A stretch of DNA of 64,000 bases from assembly GCA_017625615.1 (NCBI GenBank), contig JAGAKP010000015.1:15146-79145 (forward strand). Reading direction: 5' to 3'. Position numbers and translations under genes: made by a program. Below the pieces are notes generated by a model. That model did no database searches and was not told the DNA's origin. It was given only the letters and a program-made list of their open reading frames with translations. Origin of the DNA: Clostridia bacterium (lineage in GTDB: Bacteria > Bacillota > Clostridia > Oscillospirales > CAG-382). Numbering within the stretch: the stretch's first letter is position 1; each line of letters opens with the position of its first letter. Below are positions 21,358 through 60,946 of this stretch, in pieces.

Positions 21358-23145
21358 ATGAAGAAAAAAATCATTTCCCTCGCCGTGGTTGTTTTGCTCG
21401 CCGTTTCCTATTTAACCGTTCTTGCCGTTGCTGATACGGGCATTGAAGCGGAAAACGGAGTTATTACGGCAGAACTTCAAAGCGTAATGGATTCTGCAAC
21501 GGCTACAGCGAAAATCCCCGTAAGTATATGGACTACGGAAATTGACACGGCTGTTGTAGAAGAAATAGCGCTGGCAAAATCCGGCTACAACAAGGATAGT
21601 ATACGCGCTTTGGTAGACCAAGGCAAAATTGATACCGTTACCTTGGAAGACGTAGATAAATACATCGCCGCAGAGCGCAGAATATACGCGCAAATGCAAA
21701 CACAAGCACACCAAGCTTTTGTTAATGACTATGCATTTCTTAAAAAAGCAAGCACGGCAGAAGGCGCATATATATGCTCCTACGCACCTATGATGATAGT
21801 CGAGCTTACTACGTCGCAGATAGAAACACTTGCAAAAGATTCCGATGTTAATACGATGTATTATGCTCCAGAATCAGAATCATGCGCAGCAATAAATGTT
21901 GGAGCGGCTGTCACGAAAGCTGATTATGTCCGAGATACCGGCGGTTTATCTGGTAATAATATTAAAATAGGTATGATTGAAAAAGGCACCATTCCCGAAT
22001 CAACCGCGGTCTTACCTTCCGGACACGTAACCATCCAGACAGGACTTAATGTACCAGATGATCATTCAACGATGGTAGCGGAAATAATACTTTCGAACGG
22101 TTCATATAAAGGGATTGTGCCCGACGCAAATTTATATTGTACTGCATTTTCATATTTTACCAATATGTGTTCAAGAACTGAATGGCTACTATCTCAAAAT
22201 GTACACATAATTAATATGAGTTTCGGGTATACCAACGACTTTGGTGTGTATAATTTCATTGATAAATGGGTAGACCATATCGCGAATAGCCATAGCGTGC
22301 ATGTCGTTGTTGCCGCAGGAAACGTAGAAAATTTATCGCACCCTTATCATTATGTTATGCATCCGGCTATCGCCTACAATGTTGTAACTGTCGGAAACCT
22401 TGATGATAAAAACACTGCTATGTGGAACGATGATGAAATAAACCCATCTTCTTGTTATCAAGAAGTATATGTTAATGATGTTGCCACAACTGCAAATAAA
22501 CCCGACTTAGTAGCACCCGGTACTGATATCACGACTTCATCAGGATATACTAACACGGGCACAAGTTTCGCAGCGCCGCATGTCGCAGGAATTATGGCAC
22601 AATTAATACAACAAATGCCGGCACTTGCAACGCTTCAAGATTTAATGAAGGCTATACTAACTGCATCTATCAGCCATTCTGAACACCAATATGATTCAAA
22701 TGACGCGAATTTTGATATTTATGGAGCAGGAGTTGTTAATGCGCAAGACTGCACGTACACCAACTATAGAGGAACATTCGCCAGTTCTTCTTTTTCTTCA
22801 TCGGAATATGACACTTATAAAGAGTATACTTTCACCGCAACAAATACCGATACACAAATAAGAGTGTCTTTGGCATGGATTAAAAACGTCTTGTTTTCAA
22901 GTTCTAACGCTGGACATGTTTCGCTTCCTGATGTAGAAAGAGAGTTAGCGGATTTGGATTTAGTGATTATTGCTCCTAACGGCGCACAAATAACTCTGTC
23001 TGCTGATGCCAAAGCTAATCGTAACTCAAATCTTGAAATACTTCAATTTAATCCGGCAACATACGGTTACGGAACATATAAGGTCCGCGTATATATTAAT
23101 GAATCTACTGGGGCAAGAACTTATTTTGGTCTTGCGTGGTGGTAA
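21358..23145 (+). CDS. Secreted S8 (subtilisin-like) peptidase, atypical Asp motif
   Basis: Signal peptide. His motif DDHSTMVAE, Asn motif VVAAGN, Ser motif GTSFAAPHVAG. The canonical V-I-D-[ST]-G position reads GMIEKG. Confidence 0.85.
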   Translation: MKKKIISLAVVVLLAVSYLTVLAVADTGIEAENGVITAELQSVMDSATATAKIPVSIWTTEIDTAVVEEIALAKSGYNKDSIRALVDQGKIDTVTLEDVDKYIAAERRIYAQMQTQAHQAFVNDYAFLKKASTAEGAYICSYAPMMIVELTTSQIETLAKDSDVNTMYYAPESESCAAINVGAAVTKADYVRDTGGLSGNNIKIGMIEKGTIPESTAVLPSGHVTIQTGLNVPDDHSTMVAEIILSNGSYKGIVPDANLYCTAFSYFTNMCSRTEWLLSQNVHIINMSFGYTNDFGVYNFIDKWVDHIANSHSVHVVVAAGNVENLSHPYHYVMHPAIAYNVVTVGNLDDKNTAMWNDDEINPSSCYQEVYVNDVATTANKPDLVAPGTDITTSSGYTNTGTSFAAPHVAGIMAQLIQQMPALATLQDLMKAILTASISHSEHQYDSNDANFDIYGAGVVNAQDCTYTNYRGTFASSSFSSSEYDTYKEYTFTATNTDTQIRVSLAWIKNVLFSSSNAGHVSLPDVERELADLDLVIIAPNGAQITLSADAKANRNSNLEILQFNPATYGYGTYKVRVYINESTGARTYFGLAWW

Positions 23146-23172
23146 TGTAATTATCGAGAGGCGACTATATAA

Positions 23173-24036
23173 ATGAAAAGAATACTACTTATACCAGCTT
23201 TAATTGCTTTAATTTCAATTTGCACAATCGCTTGCAACACTATAGAGACAAGCGAAGCAAATATTGACATGGTTACTTCGAACGATATGTCCCAATCCAT
23301 AGAGGAAAGTGAGATCGACGAATCCTATAGTGACAAAGCGGAAGAAAGCGCGCCCGAAGCAAGTGCGCCTGACGAAAGCGAACCTGACGAGAGCGTGCCC
23401 GAAGTAAGCCTTCCGAACGAAGAAAATATTCCCGAAGAAAGCGACGCTGTAGCGGAGAATACCGAGCCTAAAGAAAACGACGGCTGGGATTTTCTTAAAG
23501 GGCTTCAAGTGTTTGGCGGTTGTATGTCCGATTCCTCGGATGCGGCTGTGCACCCCTTTGTGGACGGATTTTTGGAGGCCACCACACGATATTACCAATA
23601 TGAGGAAAACCTTGATCTGCTGTATCCCGTAAAAATTATTGTTTTTCGTTATACCGACATAAATTCTGCTTATGATCTGCCTCGCAGTTCAAAGCTGCTG
23701 AATGAAGTCGAATTTAAGCAGTTTGAAGATTGGCTCGGCGCAACAGACTTGAAATACCGCGCAAAAACAGAAAACACGCACGTATATCCCGAAGATAAAA
23801 ACACGGAAGAATATATCGTGGAATATACCTTCATACACACCGAATTGTCTGCAGACGATATGAACGAGCTCGTGGAATTGGGCAAAGAAAAGGGATATCG
23901 TTTAAATATACTCTTTTGCGCTGATGATGAATGTCTTGAGGGCAAGGACGTTTATTATCCCGACGGATGTGTGTGGCACGACTGCTACGAGGATTTCGGT
24001 AAAGAAATTCCCGAGGATTGCTTTAATAAAAAATAA
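23173..24036 (+). CDS. Lipoprotein with acidic linker and Cys-rich C-terminal domain
   Basis: Lipobox TIAC. An E/P/S-rich linker. The C-terminal domain resembles that of the 42603 lipoprotein. Confidence 0.6.
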   Translation: MKRILLIPALIALISICTIACNTIETSEANIDMVTSNDMSQSIEESEIDESYSDKAEESAPEASAPDESEPDESVPEVSLPNEENIPEESDAVAENTEPKENDGWDFLKGLQVFGGCMSDSSDAAVHPFVDGFLEATTRYYQYEENLDLLYPVKIIVFRYTDINSAYDLPRSSKLLNEVEFKQFEDWLGATDLKYRAKTENTHVYPEDKNTEEYIVEYTFIHTELSADDMNELVELGKEKGYRLNILFCADDECLEGKDVYYPDGCVWHDCYEDFGKEIPEDCFNKK

Positions 24037-49454: not shown

Positions 49455-50063
49455 TTACTTTTTGTTAAATCTAAGTGCCGACCACATTATTATGATGATC
49501 TGACCGGGTATGCCTACGAGGAACAGCTGCCACATAGGCAAGCCGCAGAGACGCAGGTTTACGTACAGCGCGCCGATAACCGACCACATCAGCAAGGAAA
49601 CGATGGGATAATTCCACTTTGAGGGGAACCACACGCAGTTGAAGATGAGCCACACCACCGCAGAGCAGGGCACGGCGTATACGAAGGCGAGCCAATGGAG
49701 AGTGGTTATTGCGGGCACTGCCTGGAGAATAACGAAAAGTGCCGTCGCGATAAGCCAGACCAGAAAAATGCTCATACCCATTACGGCAAAGCGGTTGCGC
49801 AGTATCCGCTTTTTCTTCGCCTCCTCGTCCTCAACGTTGACAGGTGCGGAGGTATGCTCCTCGGTAACCAGCCAATCCAAGGTAACGCCGAAAAGGTCTG
49901 CCATTTCTTTAAGCACGGTAATGTCCGGCATAGACTCGCCGCGCTCCCATTTGGACACGGCTTTATCCGAATAATTCATTTTTTCGGCTAAGTCGAGCTG
50001 TGTCATTCCCGCAGATTGACGGAGCTGTATTATGTTTTTGGCGATAACGCTTTTAAGTTCCAT
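49455..50063 (-). CDS. XRE-family HTH protein with four C-terminal TM helices
   Basis: NIIQLRQSAGMTQLDLAEKMNYSDKAVSKWERGES HTH followed by a hydrophobic C-terminal half. Start taken at MELK. Confidence 0.75.
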   Translation of the reverse strand: MELKSVIAKNIIQLRQSAGMTQLDLAEKMNYSDKAVSKWERGESMPDITVLKEMADLFGVTLDWLVTEEHTSAPVNVEDEEAKKKRILRNRFAVMGMSIFLVWLIATALFVILQAVPAITTLHWLAFVYAVPCSAVVWLIFNCVWFPSKWNYPIVSLLMWSVIGALYVNLRLCGLPMWQLFLVGIPGQIIIIMWSALRFNKK

Positions 50064-50245
50064 ATAAAAAATCACCGTCGTAATATGTTTACACTACAGT
50101 ATATCATATCACGACGGGATTATCAAGTTTTTTTGCGTTTTTTACTATACGGTTTTCATTAAAAATGTTCGCCATATACGATGCTGCGCTTTAAAAAAAC
50201 AAATCACCACAAAACGACTTTGCAAAATACTCTACATGAATATTG

Positions 50246-50548
50246 TTAAATTATGCCCTCTTCAGCAAGCATAGCAGTATATTCTTCAAACACAGCATCA
50301 ACGATATCGTCGTCTTCAACAATTTCCAAAACATCTTCTCCATCATCTTCTATAATAGCAAAGACTAATGCTTCGTCGTCTTCAACGCCTTCCATCATTT
50401 CGATTGGTTTAAGAATCACGTACATTTCTCCATCTAACGGAATCAGTGCAACCTGCTCAAAGGTAACCGCTTCATCTTCTTCGGTATATAACACTATAGG
50501 ATCAGTGTCGTTGGGATCAAGGATTTGCTCAATTGGAGTTTTTGCCAT
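50246..50548 (-). CDS. DUF1292-like hyper-acidic small protein
   Basis: 100 aa. By my count, 32 Asp/Glu against 2 Lys and 0 Arg. DUF1292-like pattern: VLYTEEDEAVTFEQVALIPLDGEMYVILKP...DDEALVF. It lies 19 nt downstream of the TIR-TPR gene. Confidence 0.7.
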   Translation of the reverse strand: MAKTPIEQILDPNDTDPIVLYTEEDEAVTFEQVALIPLDGEMYVILKPIEMMEGVEDDEALVFAIIEDDGEDVLEIVEDDDIVDAVFEEYTAMLAEEGII

Positions 50549-50567
50549 TGTAATGCTTCATTTCTTT

Positions 50568-53048
50568 TTATGATTTTAAAATCGTTATAGCCTCTTTTTT
50601 CTTTTTTTTGTAAGTTTTGTCATCAGGATACTTTTCTGAAAGCTCAGTCCATATCTCTAAAGCGCTCTCCATTAAGTCGCGTTCTAAAGTTACCATAGCG
50701 AGTTTATAGCAAGAAGCGGCAACTCGAGCATAGCTCGTGTCCGATTGCATTTCTTCACACAATTCAACACACAGATCCAAGTGCTCTTGATAATAGCAGG
50801 CAGCTTCTTCTTTTTTTCCTAACACCTTACTAATCCGTCCAATTGCATCGAGAATTTCGATTTTTACTTTTTTATCTAAATAAGGAGCTTCTTTTTCATC
50901 TACTTTATTATACAATTGGAGAGCAGAAGAATAATAAGAATGCGCAACTTTCAAATCGCGTTTTTCTTTTGCAGTCATAATATATCCGCCGTAAAGTGCA
51001 TCGTCAGGGTCACCGTTTTCGGTTGAATCATAGCACGATGCGAGCGTTGCGTATTGCTCGATCAAATCGTAATACGTCTGTGCGCTCGGATATTCCGAAG
51101 CAATATTCCGAAAAATTTCAAGTGACAGCTCTTGGTACCTTTTGGATTTTCCAGTCAACCACAAACTCTCAAAAAGCGTTCCCATCATCGAGTACATACA
51201 GCCCAACAGTTTTTGTGAATGTATGTTTTTCTCTTTTTTCAATTTGACGGTAACCGAATTAATTGCCTTCCGCATTTGCTTGATGGCTTTTATGGTTTTT
51301 CCTCGACTAAAAAAGTAGTGAGAAAGCATAAGATAATTATCATCATCTTTAGCGTGGGCGAAATTCTTTTCTTTGAATATTTTATCTGCTCGTTTTATAT
51401 ACAGACGTGCTTTTTTTGAATCGCCAAGAACTTTAAAATATCTTCCTATTGTGTCGCACAAATCTATCATTTTTAATGCAGGACCGTCATTGTTTTGCGC
51501 CTTCATTATAATTTCAAGGAAGTCAATAGCTTTGATCAGCGAATAAGCCGCCTCGTTATAATTCTCTGTTTGTTCAAGGCTTTCAGATAGTTCGCAATAT
51601 AAAGTGACGAGATGCCACCTTGTTTTCATCGATCTTTCCTCGTCATAAAGAAGAGATCCGAATTCCACAGCCTTTCTTCTGTATTGTACCGCTTCGGCAA
51701 GTTTATTAAGTTCTGAATAAACTCTGCCAACGTTTCTATAACTATCCGAAAGTAACTCTTTAGAACAGTCAAACTGATCGCACAGCTTATGCGAAATAGG
51801 TATCATTTGCTGATAATAATCCAACGCAGAAATATTATCTGAATTTTCTTCACAAATCATTCCCGCAAGAAGCAGCGCCGTGTAATGGTTAAAATAGCTA
51901 TCCTCATCGTGGTTTGCTTCCAAAGATTCCTTGGTAATATTTATGCTTCGTCTTGCCCATTTTTGGGATTCTTCGTAATCTTTAGATACTTGGTCGCCGC
52001 GGTTATAAATCTTCGACAATTCTTCCGCCGCTTCCGCCACGTTTTCGTTTGCCGCAATTTCAAGCAAAGCTACGGCTTTGGTGGGATTTTTTTCTACGTC
52101 GATTCCCCTCAAATACGCAATCCCCATGAGATATCGATGATGTGATGTGTCTTCTCTTTCCAAACGCGCACTTAACAGATTCAAAAGCGCACCCGAGCGT
52201 GCTCTCTCATCATACGCATCGATGGGGTCTGAAATACCCGGATAATATTTTTTTAAATCGGTTATATCTGTTGGCACTAACTCTGCGGGAACAATGGGTA
52301 TAACATTGTTGGCAGCAGGGTATTCTTCGTCCATAACATAATTTGGTTTTTCCAATACATTGGGTGTTACTGCCAACAAAAACAGGTCGCTTTCGCTCAA
52401 TATGTTACGAATGTTTTTTTCAAAATCATCGCCCGGAACAAGAAACTCGTCATACCAGATGGCGACATTTTCCAACATTTTGTGTTCGTGTATAAGCGAC
52501 ATAATAGCTTGAGCATATTCTCGGTCTTTTTTTCTGTAACTCAAGAAAATCTTTGCATAAAACGCTTTTCGAACTTCATCGACAAGCGAATCATTTGCTA
52601 ATATGGATTTAAGAAAATTCCCCAGTTTTTCCATATAAGGAAGGGCTGTGTGATCATTATCACTCTCTTTTAAAAACTGAATGTTGCCAAACTTCTGTTT
52701 GTATCCTGTTTCTATGTTGTTTTCTTGTACCAACGGCAAAATGGGTATATTATGCTCAATAGCAAACGCAAGATCAAAATTTATGGTTCTATTCTGTGTG
52801 CAAAGAAGCTCTGTCGTGACGGGAATAACAAAAAGATCCATCTGTTTCAGATTAAACCTATACTCATCGTCAGTTGCAACATCACTTTTCGGAGGATAAT
52901 AGTATATCGCACAATCACAAATATCAAAAATTTGGTCAAATATCTTATCGGAAAATTTTTCAAAAGCAGAGTCACAACAAGAAAAATAAACCTTGGCTTT
53001 ACCTCTTGGAGAATCTCCCTTTTTTCTCGTACGCCAACAAATATTCAC
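50568..53048 (-). CDS. Tandem TIR-domain protein with Sel1/TPR repeat C-terminal region
   Basis: GTG start 7 nt after AGGAG. TIR-like module 1 covers aa ~17-110. Module 2 covers aa ~165-260 (KIFLSYRKKD, WYDEFLVPGDDF, SDLFLLAVTPNVL, YVMDEEY). aa ~300-826 are helical Sel1/TPR-like repeats. No P-loop seen. Confidence 0.75.
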   Translation of the reverse strand: MNICWRTRKKGDSPRGKAKVYFSCCDSAFEKFSDKIFDQIFDICDCAIYYYPPKSDVATDDEYRFNLKQMDLFVIPVTTELLCTQNRTINFDLAFAIEHNIPILPLVQENNIETGYKQKFGNIQFLKESDNDHTALPYMEKLGNFLKSILANDSLVDEVRKAFYAKIFLSYRKKDREYAQAIMSLIHEHKMLENVAIWYDEFLVPGDDFEKNIRNILSESDLFLLAVTPNVLEKPNYVMDEEYPAANNVIPIVPAELVPTDITDLKKYYPGISDPIDAYDERARSGALLNLLSARLEREDTSHHRYLMGIAYLRGIDVEKNPTKAVALLEIAANENVAEAAEELSKIYNRGDQVSKDYEESQKWARRSINITKESLEANHDEDSYFNHYTALLLAGMICEENSDNISALDYYQQMIPISHKLCDQFDCSKELLSDSYRNVGRVYSELNKLAEAVQYRRKAVEFGSLLYDEERSMKTRWHLVTLYCELSESLEQTENYNEAAYSLIKAIDFLEIIMKAQNNDGPALKMIDLCDTIGRYFKVLGDSKKARLYIKRADKIFKEKNFAHAKDDDNYLMLSHYFFSRGKTIKAIKQMRKAINSVTVKLKKEKNIHSQKLLGCMYSMMGTLFESLWLTGKSKRYQELSLEIFRNIASEYPSAQTYYDLIEQYATLASCYDSTENGDPDDALYGGYIMTAKEKRDLKVAHSYYSSALQLYNKVDEKEAPYLDKKVKIEILDAIGRISKVLGKKEEAACYYQEHLDLCVELCEEMQSDTSYARVAASCYKLAMVTLERDLMESALEIWTELSEKYPDDKTYKKKKKEAITILKS

Positions 53049-53143
53049 GCTTCGGCTCCTTTAATTAAAATAACGTTTTATAATCAATTTTCAAGAAAAG
53101 CATGTATGTCATAAGCCGGTAGTGATTAATTTTCCGGTATACC

Positions 53144-53692
53144 TTATTTGCTTGACGTTGCTCTTTTATACAAAAACAATAGGGGCGGTGTGTTGTTGCG
53201 AAGTATGAACACGGGGAGCATACTTAAGACAAAATTAACTATCGCCACGGGCATCCACACCCAAAATCCGCCGCAGAAGGGCAGAAATCCGATAACGAAC
53301 CCGCCAAGGGCGTTTACGATATGTATTGCCACGCCGTAATTGGATTCAAGCAAGAAACGGCGGAGGTATTCGGTATCGTCGGTGCTTTGAAGCTTGTCCT
53401 TATGGAAGCCGGTAAATCCGCCGAGCTCGGGCACGAGGACAGTTATTTTTTTAAGCTTTATTTTTGAATAAAACTTTTTTTCTTTTCGGGACACGTCAAA
53501 GGCTTTCTTCCCTGCCGCAAACCATTTTTCGGGCAGACGGCGGATGAGAAACGCCGTTATTCCGTCGTATGCGATGACGGACACGGTGCCGAGGACGGAA
53601 AACAGCAAGATTTTCCAAAAATCGCCGTATGCGATGGCGTTTGCGGTGACGATTATTGCGTTTGCTAACAGGATGACTGCTGTGTAGAACAT
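53144..53692 (-). CDS. Membrane protein, function unknown (possibly CrtO-like acyltransferase fold)
   Basis: Four TM helices with a central basic loop. It overlaps the upstream acyltransferase gene by 28 nt. The family assignment is tentative. Confidence 0.5.
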   Translation of the reverse strand: MFYTAVILLANAIIVTANAIAYGDFWKILLFSVLGTVSVIAYDGITAFLIRRLPEKWFAAGKKAFDVSRKEKKFYSKIKLKKITVLVPELGGFTGFHKDKLQSTDDTEYLRRFLLESNYGVAIHIVNALGGFVIGFLPFCGGFWVWMPVAIVNFVLSMLPVFILRNNTPPLLFLYKRATSSK

Positions 53693-56239: not shown

Positions 56240-59200
56240 TTATTCAACGTCTTCCCATGCGGGGATGGTGTAAGTGCCGAGAACGTGACGCTTAACAAGG
56301 ATGTAGTCGTTAGCATCGATCTTGCCGTTGCCGTTAACGTCTGCCAGCTCGAGAGTCTTAGCATCTACGTCTTCTTCGGAAAGAGCACCAACAACGAGCT
56401 TTCTGATGGTAGCATAGTCGTTAGCGTCGATCTTGCCGTTCATGTTGGCGTCACCTTCGAGGTATTCAACCTTCTTGTAGGTAAGAGCGGTGGTACCGGT
56501 CTTTTCGGGATCGGTGGTGTAGAAGCCGCCGTTAGCGTCAACGCCGTCAACGAGCTTATCGGTGGTAGCAACACCTGCATCCCAGATGTAAACGATATCG
56601 CCAACCTGGAGAGCGGTGATAGATGCGTATGCAGCAGCGTTATCAACGTGAGCTGCGAGAGCGATCTGAGTTTCGGTAAGAGTGCCGTCCTTAGCGTCTG
56701 CGCCGCTGAGGAGAACCTTAACTACTTCCCAAGCGTTTTCTTCAGCGTTCCATTCGAGAACGGTAACGCCCCACCAAGAATTGTTGGAGAAATCCTTATT
56801 CCAGATGTTGTGTGCGTTAGCTGCGAATACGTTAGTCTGGTTGAGCTCTCCGCCTTCGGAGAATTCGCCGGTAACGTAGGTCTTAGCTGCTTCGAATGCT
56901 ACGTTGAACTTGATCTCGCCTGCGGGAGTAGCCCAAGGATCATCGGGATTGTAAGGAGCAACGCTGATCTGAACTTCGTCGCCTTCCTTAACTTCAACGG
57001 TCCAGGTCTTGAGAACGGGATCGCTGTCGGACCACTGAGTATCGCCGTAGATACCTGCGGTGAGGTTGTTTACAGTGTAGGTCCAGTTGGTTTCGGTAAG
57101 CATAGTGAATACTATCTTGCCGTCTGCGGTAGCGGTGTAGGTGTAGAACGCTGCGCCGCCGTCCATAGCGATAGCATCGGTAACGTTAGCGGTGATATCA
57201 CCAAGTACGTCGATGATGAAGGGGTTGGACATAGTGCCCTTGATTACGGGAACGCATCTGGGATATGCAACGTATTCCTCTGCGGATGCATTGATAAGGG
57301 TAACAACGTCGCCCTTAACGAGGTTTGCTTCGCCATCGATAGCCTCGCCGTTTACGAGAACCGTAACGTTTTCATCGTAAAGTGCGAAGAATGCGCCGTC
57401 TTCAAATGCTACGTTGTAGCTGAGAGCGGTGTTAGCGGGGATAACTACGTTCTGACCAAGCATGGGGTTGAATGCGGGAAGATCGCCGCCGTCAACTTCG
57501 TCGAGTGCGGGAGCTGCTGCCTTTACGGTAAAGCCTGCGTTGGTGAGTGCGCCGGGTGCAGCGGTGAGGTCTACGTTGTAGAGAGTTACGATATCGCCAA
57601 CGTTTACGGTGTCTGCGATTTCGTGTCTGCCAACGTTTGCTTCGTTTGCGCTGAGAGCGAGAACGTACTGACCTGCAGTAACAGCGATGTTAGTCTTAAC
57701 GCTTGCGGGGTTGGTGTTTCTGTCAAGTTCGAGGTAAGTAGCGGCTACGGTGCCGTCTGCGTTAACTACGATAACCTTGAAGTAGTTGAGGTCCTTAGAG
57801 GAGCCATAGTACTTAGCGGTGAGTTCGCCGAGAGTCATATCAGTGTCAACGTACATTACGTAGTTGAGGAAGGTATGAGTGTAACCGTAAACGTCAAGTC
57901 CGGTTGCATCTTCGGGAAGCTCTGCAGAGGGTTCAACATAGGAAACTTCTGCTTCGGTGAATGCGATGAATTCATAAACGGGCTTATAATCTGCCTCGGG
58001 ATCATTGAAGGGGCTGTCAGTGTAGGTAAATACTACCTTAACGTACTGAGCAGTGGAGGTTGCAAATTCGATGTTTGCAACGTAAGTGCCGAGAGAGTTT
58101 TCGGCGTTGCCGTGCTGTACGAATACGCTTTCGGGGATATCGGTGGTGGATTCAACGGGAGTCCATTCGATACCGTCGGTAGAAACGTACACCTTAGCAT
58201 CCTTGGAAGGATAGCCGATCATGGAGTTGGTTTCAACGTAAAGACCAACCTTGATATTGTTAACGTCGATAGCGGTACCGGCGTTGTAAACGAGGGTAAG
58301 CTCGGGATAGAGTTCGGGGTTCTTGCAAACGAGGTTCTGAACGAGGAGAACGCCTGTAGTGCCGAAGGAGGTTGCGCCTTCTGCCCAAACGTTGTCAGTG
58401 AGAGCTGCTACGAATGCATCGTTGCCGGAAGAGATCTTGATCTGGGTATCGTCGTATTCAACGTTCCAGCCGGTGTTGTATTCGGGAGCTGCGGGAACTT
58501 CGTTAACTGCAACTTCTGCGAGAGAAGCGAATTCCCAGAATACCTTGCCGTCTGCGGGAGAATCGCCGAGAACGCCGGTGGAAGCGCCAACTACGAAGGT
58601 TGCTCTTACGTATGCAGCGTCAACTGCGTCAAATGCGAGGGTGGAGGATACGGTGCCGTCTGCTGCGGTGGAAAGGGTTGCAGCTTCGAGGTCGTATTCG
58701 CCGAGTGCTACGTATTCTACGCCGTCAACAGAGTACTCTACAAGTACCTTGCCTTCGGGATAGCCGATCATAACTGCTGCGCAGTGATAGAAATCAAGTA
58801 CGAGTGCGTCGATAGTCTTGGTTTCGCCAAGTGCATAGTTTACAACAACCTTCATGGGGTTGGTGGTGCACTTGTCGTTTTGGATAAGAGCTACCTTGCC
58901 GGTGCCTACTGCGCCCCAACCGCCGTTGAAGCCGGTAAGACCATCAGTGAGGACTGCGTTTGTATTTACGTCTACAACTACTTCGTTGTATTCAACTTCG
59001 GGTTCTTCGCCGAAGATCTCATAGAACGCGGTGGTAGACCAAGGAACGAGACTGTTGTCAAACGCATCCCAAGTGATGCTGTGGAGAGTGTTGTAGCCTG
59101 CCTGGCCAAGCTGGAGGTTAAGACCATACTGGCCGGTAATGCCGAGAGTTGCCTTATCAAGTACAACTGTGAAGTAGTAATCGTTGCCGATTACGTAATA

Positions 59201-60946
59201 TTCAAAGGAGGTGTAGCCGCCTGCGATGGAGGAGGAATGCATACCATCGTATCCCTTGCCGTCTGCATCTACCTTGAAATCGTAAAGAGTGGTACGAGCG
59301 GTGTCGGAAGGATCTGCATCGATCCAGATACGGAACATAGTATCGTCTGCAAGAGCCTTCTTATTGTCTACTGCAACCTTGATGGTAACGGTAGATTCGC
59401 CGTCTTCAACGAGATACCAGAAATCTACTACGGGGATAGATTCCCAACCGTCTGCACGGGACTGAGCGGTACCGTTGGTAACGCCGTCAACGTAAGTGTA
59501 GGTATCCTTGAAGGAGTCGTCGTCTTCTTCAACTACAGCTTCGGTGCCCCAAACTTCAAGTTCGTTGATGAAGACGAAGTTAGTGCCCTCAACCTTGTGG
59601 AATACGAACTTAACGTATCTGCCTGCAACTGCAGCTGCGGGAGTTGCATAGTAATCGAGGTCGTAGCAAGGAGACCAGGATTCGCCAACGTACGCGTTGC
59701 CGGAAACAGTTCTGACAGAAACGGGAGTGAAGGTTACGTTATCATCGGAAACGAGAATTTCAACGGTTTCGGGATGCAAAATACCGTCAGCGCCGCCGGT
59801 GAGAACGTAAGCAAAGCCGCTGATGTCGTATACTGCCTCGAGGTCGATAACGATATCAACAAAGCGAGGAGTTGCGCCGCCCCAGCCGGAGGTTTCGCCC
59901 TTGCCGTAGTAACCTGCAACTCTGACACCGTCGGTAAGAGCGGTTGCAACGTTATCGGTGCAAGTCCACTCGTCGCTCCAGTGATAGTAGAGGTTTTCGG
60001 TAGGATAAGTATAGCCCTTGTTGAGAGCTACGTTTTCTGCAACAACGGGAGGAATAAACTTTTCAGCATAAGCGTCTGCAGTAGTGGTGCAGTTTGCTAT
60101 ATCAAGACCATAGAAAGTAACCTTGTCACCATCTACAAGTCTGGAAATGAAATCAAATGCATATTTACCAGCGGAATCAGCTGCCGCGCCGGACCAACCT
60201 ACCCAAACAAAGCCGCCTTCGGGAATTGTGAGAGAAGATTCCTTTGCTGCAGCAGAACCGTTAAGAGCAACTTCGGTAACTTCATACATGCCTTCGGTTT
60301 CTGTGGGAGCGAAAGCTGCGTGGTTCCACCACTCCATAGACGTTTCGGCATAAACTGTTGCGTCGGTGTAGATATATGCACCGTTTTCTGCGTTAACGCC
60401 GGTGTTCCAGTCTGCGTGGTTCCAGTTATCAACTACCTGAGAGGTAACGGGAGCTTCTTCTTCGATTGCATAGTAGACAGTCATAGCATTAGCGCGTGCC
60501 TGGTTGTCTGTCAATGTAATTGTGAAAGAATCAACAGCTTCTGCAAATACGATGGTAACAACTGAATCTTCTCTGGTAGCAGTTGCGTTAGCATCATTGC
60601 AGGAGTTTACCCAAGCGTTAATGTTCTTATCTGCAATGCCGGCACAATCGATTTCAATTTTCGTCATGCCTGCGTAATCTATCTTTACGATAGAATTCTT
60701 GTAGAAGCGAACAGGAGCTACATAATCAGCAACGTCGGAAGATGTAGCGGTCTTAGTGTTGGTAACAGTGATACCGTTCTGTTCCCATACCTGTTCAGAC
60801 GTGCTGAAAGCGGTACGATTCGCGGTATTCGCGAAAGAAATGGTAGCACTGCCTTCTTCTGCTGCAACGGGGAATACGAAGGTTGCGAACAGAGAGAATA
60901 CCATGCACAGTGTGAGTACTAATGAGATACTCTTTTTGAGATTCAT
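56240..60946 (-). CDS. Giant secreted dockerin-bearing protein with three discoidin-like modules
   Basis: Signal peptide ...FPVAAEE. A C-terminal type-I dockerin duplicates GDANMNGKIDANDY / DVNGNGKIDANDY. F5/8-type-C-like modules include one ending FINELEVWG. Confidence 0.85.
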   Translation of the reverse strand: MNLKKSISLVLTLCMVFSLFATFVFPVAAEEGSATISFANTANRTAFSTSEQVWEQNGITVTNTKTATSSDVADYVAPVRFYKNSIVKIDYAGMTKIEIDCAGIADKNINAWVNSCNDANATATREDSVVTIVFAEAVDSFTITLTDNQARANAMTVYYAIEEEAPVTSQVVDNWNHADWNTGVNAENGAYIYTDATVYAETSMEWWNHAAFAPTETEGMYEVTEVALNGSAAAKESSLTIPEGGFVWVGWSGAAADSAGKYAFDFISRLVDGDKVTFYGLDIANCTTTADAYAEKFIPPVVAENVALNKGYTYPTENLYYHWSDEWTCTDNVATALTDGVRVAGYYGKGETSGWGGATPRFVDIVIDLEAVYDISGFAYVLTGGADGILHPETVEILVSDDNVTFTPVSVRTVSGNAYVGESWSPCYDLDYYATPAAAVAGRYVKFVFHKVEGTNFVFINELEVWGTEAVVEEDDDSFKDTYTYVDGVTNGTAQSRADGWESIPVVDFWYLVEDGESTVTIKVAVDNKKALADDTMFRIWIDADPSDTARTTLYDFKVDADGKGYDGMHSSSIAGGYTSFEYYVIGNDYYFTVVLDKATLGITGQYGLNLQLGQAGYNTLHSITWDAFDNSLVPWSTTAFYEIFGEEPEVEYNEVVVDVNTNAVLTDGLTGFNGGWGAVGTGKVALIQNDKCTTNPMKVVVNYALGETKTIDALVLDFYHCAAVMIGYPEGKVLVEYSVDGVEYVALGEYDLEAATLSTAADGTVSSTLAFDAVDAAYVRATFVVGASTGVLGDSPADGKVFWEFASLAEVAVNEVPAAPEYNTGWNVEYDDTQIKISSGNDAFVAALTDNVWAEGATSFGTTGVLLVQNLVCKNPELYPELTLVYNAGTAIDVNNIKVGLYVETNSMIGYPSKDAKVYVSTDGIEWTPVESTTDIPESVFVQHGNAENSLGTYVANIEFATSTAQYVKVVFTYTDSPFNDPEADYKPVYEFIAFTEAEVSYVEPSAELPEDATGLDVYGYTHTFLNYVMYVDTDMTLGELTAKYYGSSKDLNYFKVIVVNADGTVAATYLELDRNTNPASVKTNIAVTAGQYVLALSANEANVGRHEIADTVNVGDIVTLYNVDLTAAPGALTNAGFTVKAAAPALDEVDGGDLPAFNPMLGQNVVIPANTALSYNVAFEDGAFFALYDENVTVLVNGEAIDGEANLVKGDVVTLINASAEEYVAYPRCVPVIKGTMSNPFIIDVLGDITANVTDAIAMDGGAAFYTYTATADGKIVFTMLTETNWTYTVNNLTAGIYGDTQWSDSDPVLKTWTVEVKEGDEVQISVAPYNPDDPWATPAGEIKFNVAFEAAKTYVTGEFSEGGELNQTNVFAANAHNIWNKDFSNNSWWGVTVLEWNAEENAWEVVKVLLSGADAKDGTLTETQIALAAHVDNAAAYASITALQVGDIVYIWDAGVATTDKLVDGVDANGGFYTTDPEKTGTTALTYKKVEYLEGDANMNGKIDANDYATIRKLVVGALSEEDVDAKTLELADVNGNGKIDANDYILVKRHVLGTYTIPAWEDVE

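Follow-up and report, generated by a model that had tools for sequence, protein, structure and literature searches.

Tandem-TIR/TPR proteins without an NTPase domain in gut Clostridia and their clade-level association with a DUF1292 (YrzB-type) protein

Introduction

An AT-rich islet of two genes in a 64,000-nucleotide stretch of a Clostridia bacterium genome (contig JAGAKP010000015.1 of assembly GCA_017625615.1; the whole stretch is referred to here as the window) encodes an 826-aa protein with two TIR-type modules and a Sel1/TPR tail, followed by a 100-aa acidic protein of the DUF1292 type. The locus raises the question of whether such a TIR-TPR protein represents a TIR-based alarm of its own and what part its small partner would play in it. 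TIR NADases hold a central place among the immune effectors of bacteria, plants, and animals, and the known bacterial TIR NADases depend on a partner effector, a STAND nucleoside triphosphatase (NTPase), an Argonaute, or a cyclase. A sequence-only reading of the window had proposed a TIR system that is as yet undescribed, and this term stands: no PADLOC system model fits the 826-aa protein, and no description matching the tandem-TIR/TPR family was found in the searchable literature. The analysis described here indicates that the 826-aa protein looks like a stand-alone bacterial alarm or defense protein of a new kind, belonging to a large family in which linkage to DUF1292 is a feature of one clade.

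Results

A tandem-TIR head on a Sel1/TPR tail

The larger gene of the islet is an open reading frame (ORF) of 826 aa on the minus strand (50568–53048, including the stop codon; GTG start), identified from the ORF list and Pfam. The DUF1292 ORF of 100 aa lies 3′ to it on the same strand (50246–50548) across a spacer of 19 nt; the coordinates and lengths of this two-ORF unit had been read exactly from the sequence. Module 2 of the larger protein (about aa 163–300; 52149–52562, minus strand) is a canonical TIR_2 domain by Pfam (PF13676 at aa 167–255, 40.2 bits against a cutoff of 28, E=5.4e-10), by its invariant columns, and by Foldseek. In an alignment of 121 homologs, from which the conservation counts below are taken, the first ~300 residues of the TIR-TPR proteins are strongly conserved, and module 2 carries three invariant or near-invariant motifs: FLSYRKKD, equivalent to TIR Box 1; AIWYDEFLxPG, equivalent to Box 2 with the BB-loop "PG" motif; and NY[VI]MxxE242YP. 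E242 (codon at 52323–52325, minus strand) is invariant (121/121), while positions 240 and 241 are variable, so that the acidic triplet D240-E241-E242 singled out by the sequence-only reading does contain a conserved glutamate but only at its last position. The best sequence matches of the module 2 profile in the PDB are NAD+ hydrolases, namely AbTir (E=0.002) and TIR-1/SARM1, and E242 aligns with the Glu of "WVHKE" in Caenorhabditis elegans TIR-1/SARM1. On the strength of these sequence comparisons, E242 is likely the catalytic glutamate of module 2, and module 2 is probably an NAD+-cleaving TIR.

An AlphaFold model of the head (aa 1–300; pLDDT 91.7, pTM 0.71) returned exclusively TIRs as single-domain Foldseek matches, including SPARTA, SARM1, RUN1, TLR1/2, AbTir, and BtpA, all with probability 1.0. 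TMt values of the head against solved TIRs were 0.5 to 0.62, in an output that does not tell the two modules apart. Module 1 (about aa 17–160; 52569–53000, minus strand) is a divergent TIR-like "pseudo-TIR," delimited by hhalign comparison to module 2 and by AlphaFold. Profile-profile alignment of the two modules gave a probability of 97.7% (E=2e-12, 101 columns), and strands and helices follow the same order in both modules of the AlphaFold model. The two modules are, by profile and by model, paralogs that share a predicted TIR-type fold, as the sequence-only reading had held. Recognition of module 1 as a TIR by sequence profile failed against both Pfam and PDB profiles: the window protein has no Pfam TIR match in this region, just 1 of 20 homologs touches TIR_2 (E=0.04), and no TIR is found among the PDB profile matches of module 1. 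The Box1 and Box2 motifs are missing from module 1, and the loop after strand B is variable. The earlier description of this module as degenerate needs correction at the Glu site, where D92 of module 1 lies opposite E242 in the hhalign alignment, in a column that is acidic in 113/121 homologs (Glu in 83, Asp in 30). Because it lacks the Box motifs yet remains acidic at the Glu column, module 1 is read as a diverged and probably regulatory pseudo-TIR that keeps the acidic residue.

The remaining ~520 aa form a Sel1/TPR tail, as had been recognized from the sequence, with a Sel1 repeat (aa ~306–336) and a TPR solenoid (whole tail aa ~300–826; 50571–52148, minus strand) supported by Pfam matches to Sel1, TPR_12, TPR_10, and TPR_2. 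This tail is presumed to be the sensor and partner-binding region. Absence of a P-loop, also noted at the outset, was upheld: neither an [AG]xxxxGK[ST] (Walker A) motif nor a Pfam match to an NTPase domain was found in the 826-aa protein, and the only ~50 aa between the end of TIR_2 (aa 255) and the start of Sel1 (aa 306) leave no space for an NTPase.

A large family with conserved heads and variable tails

More than 1,490 homologs of the 826-aa protein were retrieved by a word-based search, and in an exhaustive search at least 1,503 cluster representatives (50% identity) matched the 300-aa head at E≤1e-30. The head occupies the extreme N terminus in almost all of these 1,503 representatives, which range in length from 523 to 1,903 aa. 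Two unusual architectures were seen, that of P0159 (1903 aa), with two tandem-TIR heads in one protein, and that of P0227 (1129 aa), whose head begins at aa 436 behind an N-terminal extension (identifiers in P and L are our own handles for proteins and loci). More than 529 family loci were located in species-dereplicated genomes, nearly all of them of gut or rumen Clostridia, and the hosts include Lachnospiraceae, Oscillospiraceae, Ruminococcus, Faecousia, and Acutalibacteraceae. In JGI metagenomes, single-sequence patterns found no close relatives of the 826-aa protein, and a search with the clade alignment returned wider-family loci only. One 834-aa family member is found at the edge of a prophage, directly after an excisionase-integrase pair (L185:6048-10472; IMG/VR UViG_3300021256_004087); endolysin and tail genes lie upstream of this TIR-TPR gene, and DnaD/DnaC/ParA/ParB-like genes lie downstream.

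Several metagenome-assembled genomes (MAGs) have more than one copy of the gene, and tandem arrays of two or three TIR-TPR paralogs were observed at L016, L021, and L041, and also at L040, L042, L026, and L059. Median identity across the family is 51.5% for heads and ~26% for tails. The tandem paralogs of L016 are 86 to 92% identical in their heads and 46 to 58% in their tails, which suggests either local duplication with diversification of the tails or gene conversion of the heads. Conserved heads combined with fast-evolving tails are the pattern of a putative receptor family with a diversifying sensor.

Linkage to a DUF1292 gene in the closest clade

The closest clade was defined by 41 to 47% identity to the 826-aa protein over its full length. 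All five members with readable contigs carry a DUF1292 gene 19 to 40 nt downstream, namely the window protein (also L175/L176), P0007 (L080/81), P0008 (L082-84), the partners of P0128 (L166/167), and the partners of P0129 (L168/169), and the flanking contexts of these five linked loci are of at least four different kinds. In the wider family, an iterated hidden Markov model built from confirmed examples detected DUF1292 at one of ~160 loci (L046), 4 kb away and on the other strand. In another branch of the family, P0119 has a DUF1292 domain fused in frame at its C terminus (Pfam 32.1 bits against a cutoff of 24), and the same type of TIR-TPR-DUF1292 junction is also present in P0154, P0155, and P0157, giving at least three sequence variants. 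The fused domain of P0119 belongs to a distant lineage, only 20 to 27% identical to the window DUF1292, which suggests that TIR-TPR proteins became associated with DUF1292 on two or more occasions.

A family-wide partnership with DUF1292 is ruled out, since beyond the closest clade just L046 and the P0119-type fusion were found. Given the ~160 loci that lack it, DUF1292 is not generally needed for regulation, and the two-gene "system" is consequently an elaboration, at the level of one clade, of a stand-alone family that is much larger. Conserved DUF1292 linkage, which the sequence-only reading had set as a test of its proposal, thus holds for the closest clade (5/5) and gains an independent fusion, but it does not extend to the wider family. 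Tails of the linked clade have a nearly fixed length (517–536 aa, vs. 364–896 aa family-wide) and are somewhat better conserved than other tails at matched head divergence (34.4% vs. 28.1% identity). Recurrence of both adjacency and fusion, cotransfer of the two genes (see below), and the fixed length and better conservation of the tail argue for a physical link between the TIR-TPR protein and DUF1292 in this clade.

Two further observations concern the fused lineage. P0119 is encoded (L085:5819-8357) near a TraG/VirD4-type type IV secretion system coupling protein, a ClpP-like protease, and a helix-turn-helix (HTH) gene, perhaps on an integrative or conjugative element. P0158 (122 aa) joins a zinc-ribbon domain (PF13240/PF13248) to a DUF1292 domain that shares its lineage with the one in P0119.

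Resemblance of the DUF1292 partner to housekeeping YrzB

The 100-aa protein matches DUF1292 (PF06949) over profile positions 1 to 75 of 75 (39.6 bits against a cutoff of 24, E=1e-9), with a weak match to NCBIfam PRK13678-type models. It contains 32 D/E, 2 K, and 0 R. The sequence-only reading had rightly described a DUF1292-like protein of this composition and treated its acidity as a special feature. However, RuvX-linked, solitary, and TIR-linked DUF1292 copies alike contain 25 to 35 D/E per ~100 aa, and because acidity is common to the RuvX-linked copies, it is no distinguishing property of the TIR partner. Identity of the window DUF1292 is 60% to P0133, 46% to P0147, and 40% to P0149, all three of which are encoded directly after ruvX (yrrK), which is the canonical YrzB context. 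The window copy is found outside this context, following the TIR-TPR gene instead. TIR-linked copies are 49 to 68% identical to one another and form no separate clade. The idea of a dedicated accessory protein is contradicted by this lack of a clade of their own and by the 60% identity to a RuvX-linked copy; judged by its sequence, the partner appears to differ little from housekeeping, RuvX-associated YrzB.

Members of the same DUF1292 subclade are also seen with RuvX, with an ADP-ribosylglycohydrolase, or alone. In two contigs, the gene for P0139, a DUF1292 protein 55 to 56% identical to that of the window, lies 14 nt downstream of one for an ADP-ribosylglycohydrolase (L184:3198-4300 and L183:3-1066; PF03747, E=5e-34 and 7e-31). 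This adjacency would constitute a second, independent link of DUF1292 to NAD/ADP-ribose chemistry. In an Erysipelotrichales MAG (L170:4309-5300), a DUF1292 gene whose product is 63 to 64% identical to the window protein follows ORFs of 140 aa and 83 aa; both small ORFs lack a significant Pfam match, neither RuvX nor TIR is present, and the adjacent gene on the opposite strand encodes a diadenylate cyclase. The predicted fold of the window DUF1292 (AlphaFold pLDDT 86) comprises a short helix, a four- to five-stranded beta-sheet, and a long C-terminal helix. Fold comparison of this model gave nothing significant, the best E value being 0.56 against the PDB and 0.03 against viral proteins, and no sequence match was found in the PDB or in PHROG. 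A literature search for functional studies of DUF1292/YrzB found none.

Joint horizontal acquisition of the two genes

Composition sets the islet apart from its surroundings. GC content in 400-nt sliding windows is 0.34 to 0.44 across 50000 to 53200 and ~0.47 to 0.55 in the flanks, and the islet is the lowest-GC 3-kb stretch of the 64-kb window; the GC contrast was therefore seen correctly in the sequence-only reading, although its spot figure of 28 to 38% is slightly too low. By gene, GC is 0.38 for the 826-aa ORF and 0.39 for DUF1292 as compared to 0.44 to 0.51 in ten neighboring genes, and GC at third codon positions (GC3) is 0.36 and 0.32 as compared to 0.53 to 0.64. AT-richness as an intrinsic trait of the TIR-TPR family was considered and is ruled out: the median difference between gene and flank GC across 150 homologous genes is −0.007, while the window copy, at −0.10, is among the lowest ~3%. 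Since both genes are foreign in GC3 and the family itself is matched to its flanks, they probably arrived jointly by horizontal transfer, as a two-gene operon; the claim of horizontal acquisition made from the letters alone is thereby strengthened. A contrast in antisense ORFs had been offered as a second argument. The contrast itself exists, with antisense ORFs of ≤129 aa inside the unit and of 462 aa and 1426 aa opposite neighboring genes, but it is explained simply by the AT-richness of the unit.

No convincing direct or inverted repeats that could represent insertion scars flank the islet. The sole candidate, a 25-nt direct repeat of 72% identity (50178–50202 and 53155–53179), brackets the islet almost exactly and is probably due to chance. 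None of the ten neighboring genes encodes an integrase. No empty site was found, and every contig that has the identical CrtO-like flanking protein also has the cassette.

Gene order and signals at the locus

The 95-nt intergenic region upstream of the unit (53049–53143, minus strand) contains a sigma-70-like site, TTGAAA-16-TATTTT (53094–53067), and a Shine-Dalgarno sequence, AAAGGAG, 7 to 8 nt 5′ of the GTG start of the 826-aa ORF, both consensus matches only. Downstream, a 170-nt spacer (50076–50245, minus strand) forms the end of the AT-rich islet and contains the promoter-like site of the following XRE-type gene (50126–50098; score 10/12 in a promoter scan, with an extended −10 TG). The strength of this separate site indicates that the unit consists of two genes. 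No convincing terminator was found 3′ of the DUF1292 ORF, where the predicted RNA fold is no more stable than that of shuffled sequences (z=+1.2). An Rfam scan found no elements, and the 64-kb window contains no tRNA.

The ten neighboring genes are of ordinary types (CrtO-like, PlsC, GT8, XRE, MarR, and ABC). They include no SIR2, SAVED, STING, or cyclase gene, in agreement with the original exclusion of a Thoeris- or CBASS-type partner. The XRE-type gene (49455–50075, minus strand) encodes 206 aa with an N-terminal HTH (PF01381, E=3.5e-17) followed by hydrophobic segments that resemble membrane spans by eye; its native GC and its own promoter-like site place it outside the islet. L082-84 likewise has an HTH_3 gene close to the cassette, though on the other strand.

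Elsewhere in the window, the second-lowest GC stretch (21358–24036, plus strand) encodes a 595-aa secreted subtilisin-like protease and then a 287-aa very acidic lipoprotein-like ORF. In a 1,568-aa protein (56240–60946, minus strand), F5/8 type C domains are combined with a type I dockerin at the C terminus, which suggests a Ruminococcus/Oscillospiraceae-like host with a cellulosome; the uninterrupted 1,426-aa antisense ORF opposite its gene is a composition artifact.

Discussion

A proposed mode of action and the points against it

The architecture described above is compatible with the following proposal. The TIR-TPR protein may act as an NTPase-less sensor-effector with a tandem-TIR head, and DUF1292 may serve as the ligand of its tail in this clade. 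In the cytoplasm, the TPR tail would bind a ligand and keep the head inactive; in the closest clade this ligand would be the DUF1292 protein, and in P0119 it would have been joined to the tail by gene fusion. A change to the DUF1292 protein, for example its loss, sequestration, modification, or binding by a protein of an invader, would free the head, whereupon module 2 would cleave NAD+, leading to NAD+ depletion or to an ADP-ribose-derived signal. A stop of growth after NAD+ cleavage would be an outcome similar to abortive infection. Module 1, present in cis, may provide the contact between TIRs for which other TIR enzymes rely on NTPase- or SAM-driven oligomerization. Because the DUF1292 protein is nearly the same as housekeeping copies and is absent from most of the family, a role as bait, guardee, or regulated target is favored over that of a dedicated antitoxin. 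We put this account forward tentatively, as the best supported of those considered, with a probability that falls somewhat short of an even chance.

Several results weigh against it. At the putative active site, alignment to AbTir places the catalytic Glu 4 residues (one helical turn) before E242. As for the partner, TIR-linked DUF1292 copies are indistinguishable from the RuvX-linked housekeeping ones, the window gene could simply be the ordinary yrzB of this genome, and the partner is missing from the ~160 wider-family loci. The tails of the linked clade, with a charge of −1.5 per 100 aa as compared to −3.1 ± 1.9 for other tails, are not clearly more basic. A connection to defense also lacks the expected genomic signature. 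PADLOC returns weak generic TIR matches only, with the ThsB models at E=6e-5 and 4.5e-3 and the SAVED_TIR model matched by its TIR part alone (E=1.3e-5, model positions 13–90 of 404). No mobile or defense genes were found among the neighbors of the window cassette. The 134 nearest neighbors of family members, from ~75 species, fall into 159 Pfam families without a recurrent partner gene, and the handful of defense-type neighbors (CARF/Card1 twice, AbiEii, mad2/3, and DolB) do not recur. Enrichment in defense islands or mobile elements is seen neither at the window locus nor in the family neighborhoods, an outcome that the sequence-only reading had itself named as counting against its proposal and that on this point partly does so. 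Relatives of the TIR-TPR protein number 0 in 72,556 plasmids and 50,697 phage genomes and occur in 2 of 2.9 million viral contigs, one of which is L185 with its prophage-edge copy, a near-absence from mobile collections.

Alternative explanations

Best placed among the alternatives, though still rather unlikely in our view, is a housekeeping or regulatory role in place of immunity, in which the TIR-TPR protein regulates or is regulated by a YrzB/DUF1292 pathway (RuvX-associated rRNA or DNA processing). Such regulation might proceed by an NAD-derived signal or by ADP-ribosylation of the Asp/Glu-rich DUF1292, with ADP-ribosylglycohydrolases acting as erasers in other genomes. Adjacency of RuvX to DUF1292 copies 46 to 60% identical to that of the window fits this explanation, as do the 55%-identical copy that in two contigs follows an ADP-ribosylglycohydrolase gene at a distance of 14 nt and the occurrence of the family in housekeeping neighborhoods, without defense enrichment and rarely on mobile elements. 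On the other hand, the cassette is compositionally foreign, which marks it as accessory rather than core, and multicopy tandem arrays whose tails are hypervariable typify diversifying receptors, not housekeeping regulators. The glycohydrolase link is a single case, and we know of no established instance of protein ADP-ribosylation by a TIR domain.

The tight operon with its 19-nt gap brings to mind a toxin-antitoxin-like pair, in which the TIR protein would be a constitutively dangerous NADase and DUF1292 its labile, stoichiometric inhibitor. The partner is small and acidic, the pair is coinherited across different contexts, and the foreign GC3 of both genes points to cotransfer, all of which would be expected of such a pair. 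In contrast, more than 1,500 family clusters manage without the partner, which is absent as a neighbor from the ~160 loci examined, and covalent fusion in one lineage ill suits a labile antitoxin. The partner is also better conserved (49–68% identity) than the putative toxin (41–47%) and is 60% identical to a RuvX-linked copy, the reverse of the pattern usual for fast-evolving, dedicated antitoxins, and other members of its subclade are found accompanied by RuvX or ADP-ribosylglycohydrolase, or alone. A toxin-antitoxin arrangement is accordingly considered improbable.

A bolder form of the proposed sensor-effector mechanism, to which we assign a comparably small chance, is that of a guard-and-decoy receptor without an NTPase: a duplicated YrzB would be kept as bait and watched by the TPR tail, and a phage factor that hits YrzB would free the prepaired TIR head. 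If this were true, the P0119 fusion would correspond, among prokaryotes, to the integrated decoys of plant receptors with nucleotide-binding and leucine-rich repeat domains (NLRs), and the ~1,500 clusters would represent a large, unrecognized repertoire of NTPase-less TIR immune receptors in gut Clostridia. In a variant, DUF1292 would be an ADP-ribosylation substrate of the TIR head, with the ADP-ribosylglycohydrolase found elsewhere as the eraser.

Absence of any functional link is more doubtful still. The TIR-TPR protein would then stand alone like the rest of its family, and DUF1292 would be an unrelated gene carried along with it, consistent with the lack of a DUF1292 neighbor in the wider family, with the occurrence of same-subclade DUF1292 proteins alone or in other contexts, and with a tail that is not clearly more basic than others. 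Yet the adjacency of 19 to 40 nt was kept while the large protein diverged to 41 to 47% identity and the flanks changed, and an independent DUF1292 lineage was fused to the tail of P0119, a recurrence that is hard to ascribe to chance. Finally, a nonenzymatic scaffold, in which the TIRs would be protein-protein adaptors in a TPR/Sel1 platform like those of animal TLR and MyD88 and would cleave no NAD+, is very unlikely: the scaffold TIRs TLR1, TLR2, and MAL do match the head at Foldseek scores similar to those of enzymatic TIRs, and the Box2 "PG" BB-loop motif is common to adaptor TIRs, but the Glu at the catalytic position is invariant, the nearest PDB sequence matches are NAD+ hydrolases, and bacterial TIRs assayed so far are mostly enzymes.

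Significance

If the TIR-TPR protein acts as the proposed NTPase-less sensor-effector, TIR enzymes would have a further, distinct mode of being switched on, represented by no fewer than 1,500 clusters that combine a tandem TIR with a variable TPR tail and lack an NTPase; the duplicated TIR might replace oligomerization. Most of the family belongs to gut and rumen Clostridia, abundant bacteria in which phage defense is poorly charted. Its tie to DUF1292 would offer a first functional handle on the widespread Bacillota YrzB/UPF0473 proteins, normally encoded beside RuvX. Should the bait role prove true, bacteria would share with plant NLRs both a guard-decoy logic and integrated decoys; if instead the TIR is inactive or the gene pair coincidental, the protein would be just one more "TIR/TPR domain protein." Interest in the locus stems mainly from the size of the family, the NTPase-less tandem-TIR head, and the apparently twice-evolved tie to DUF1292/YrzB, tempered by the lack of a defense-island signal.

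Comparison with known systems

Among systems built on a TIR or TPR component, several are set apart by what they require. In Thoeris, a ThsA-like gene is expected, and none is present here; the ThsB matches are weak, and the locus does not belong to this class. The same applies to CBASS/Pycsar, as no cyclase is found among the neighbors and only the TIR part of SAVED_TIR is matched. For TIR + TPR-effector operons of the BcTir/BcTpr and Thoeris type, anti-phage activity has been reported (bioRxiv 10.1101/2023.05.26.542521; 10.64898/2025.12.03.692087). BcTir/BcTpr ("TPR core," Burroughs-Aravind) shares with the window cassette the combination of TIR and TPR in a small Bacillota operon. It differs in having a separate TIR protein and a TPR protein with its own N-terminal glycosidase or nucleotide-processing effector, which senses the signal made by the TIR; in the window cassette, a single chain carries both TIRs and the TPR tail, and DUF1292 is encoded by the second gene. 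TIRs of the AbTir/BtpA/TcpC type include the best PDB match to module 2 (AbTir), with TMt of 0.56 to 0.62 and the "WYDEF" motif common to AbTir and module 2, but contain one TIR each, along with a coiled-coil or a short N-terminal region, and lack a tandem TIR, a TPR tail, and DUF1292. The small partner resembles YrzB/UPF0473 of the yrzL-yrrK(ruvX)-yrzB arrangement in length, acidity, and predicted fold elements, with 46 to 60% identity to RuvX-adjacent copies, and differs in following a TIR-TPR gene instead of ruvX and in its foreign codon usage.

Closer parallels are found among proteins that join an effector to a repeat sensor. TIR-STAND/Avs/TIR-NLR proteins and plant TIR-NLRs likewise combine a TIR with a repeat sensor (TPR or leucine-rich repeats), conserved heads with hypervariable repeats, and tandem paralogs, and plant NLRs with an integrated decoy parallel the DUF1292 fusion of P0119; however, the central NTPase (NACHT, NB-ARC, or STAND) that defines them is missing here, and the 826-aa protein is not a STAND protein. 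SARM1/TIR-1 carries a TIR NADase and an alpha-helical repeat domain in one chain without an NTPase, and the SARM1 repeats autoinhibit and sense ligand; E242 falls on the Glu of its catalytic site, and the SARM1 TIR is matched by Foldseek with probability 1.0. In contrast to SARM1, the TIR head is N-terminal here (the order is reversed), a SAM domain is lacking, a second, divergent TIR is present, and TPR/Sel1 repeats take the place of ARM repeats; sequence similarity is marginal (E about 0.04–1.7). DSR2 has an N-terminal NADase and a long, helical-repeat C-terminal sensor in one protein, again with no NTPase, and its activity is reported to be switched by a small protein that binds the solenoid (PMC11850899). 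Its effector is a SIR2 domain and its ligands are phage proteins, unlike the candidate ligand proposed here, which is host-encoded in the operon, and the two proteins have no sequence relationship. By analogy, the TIR-TPR protein may work most like SARM1 or DSR2, with NLR-like traits in its conserved effector, variable repeats, tandem paralogs, and what may be an integrated bait.

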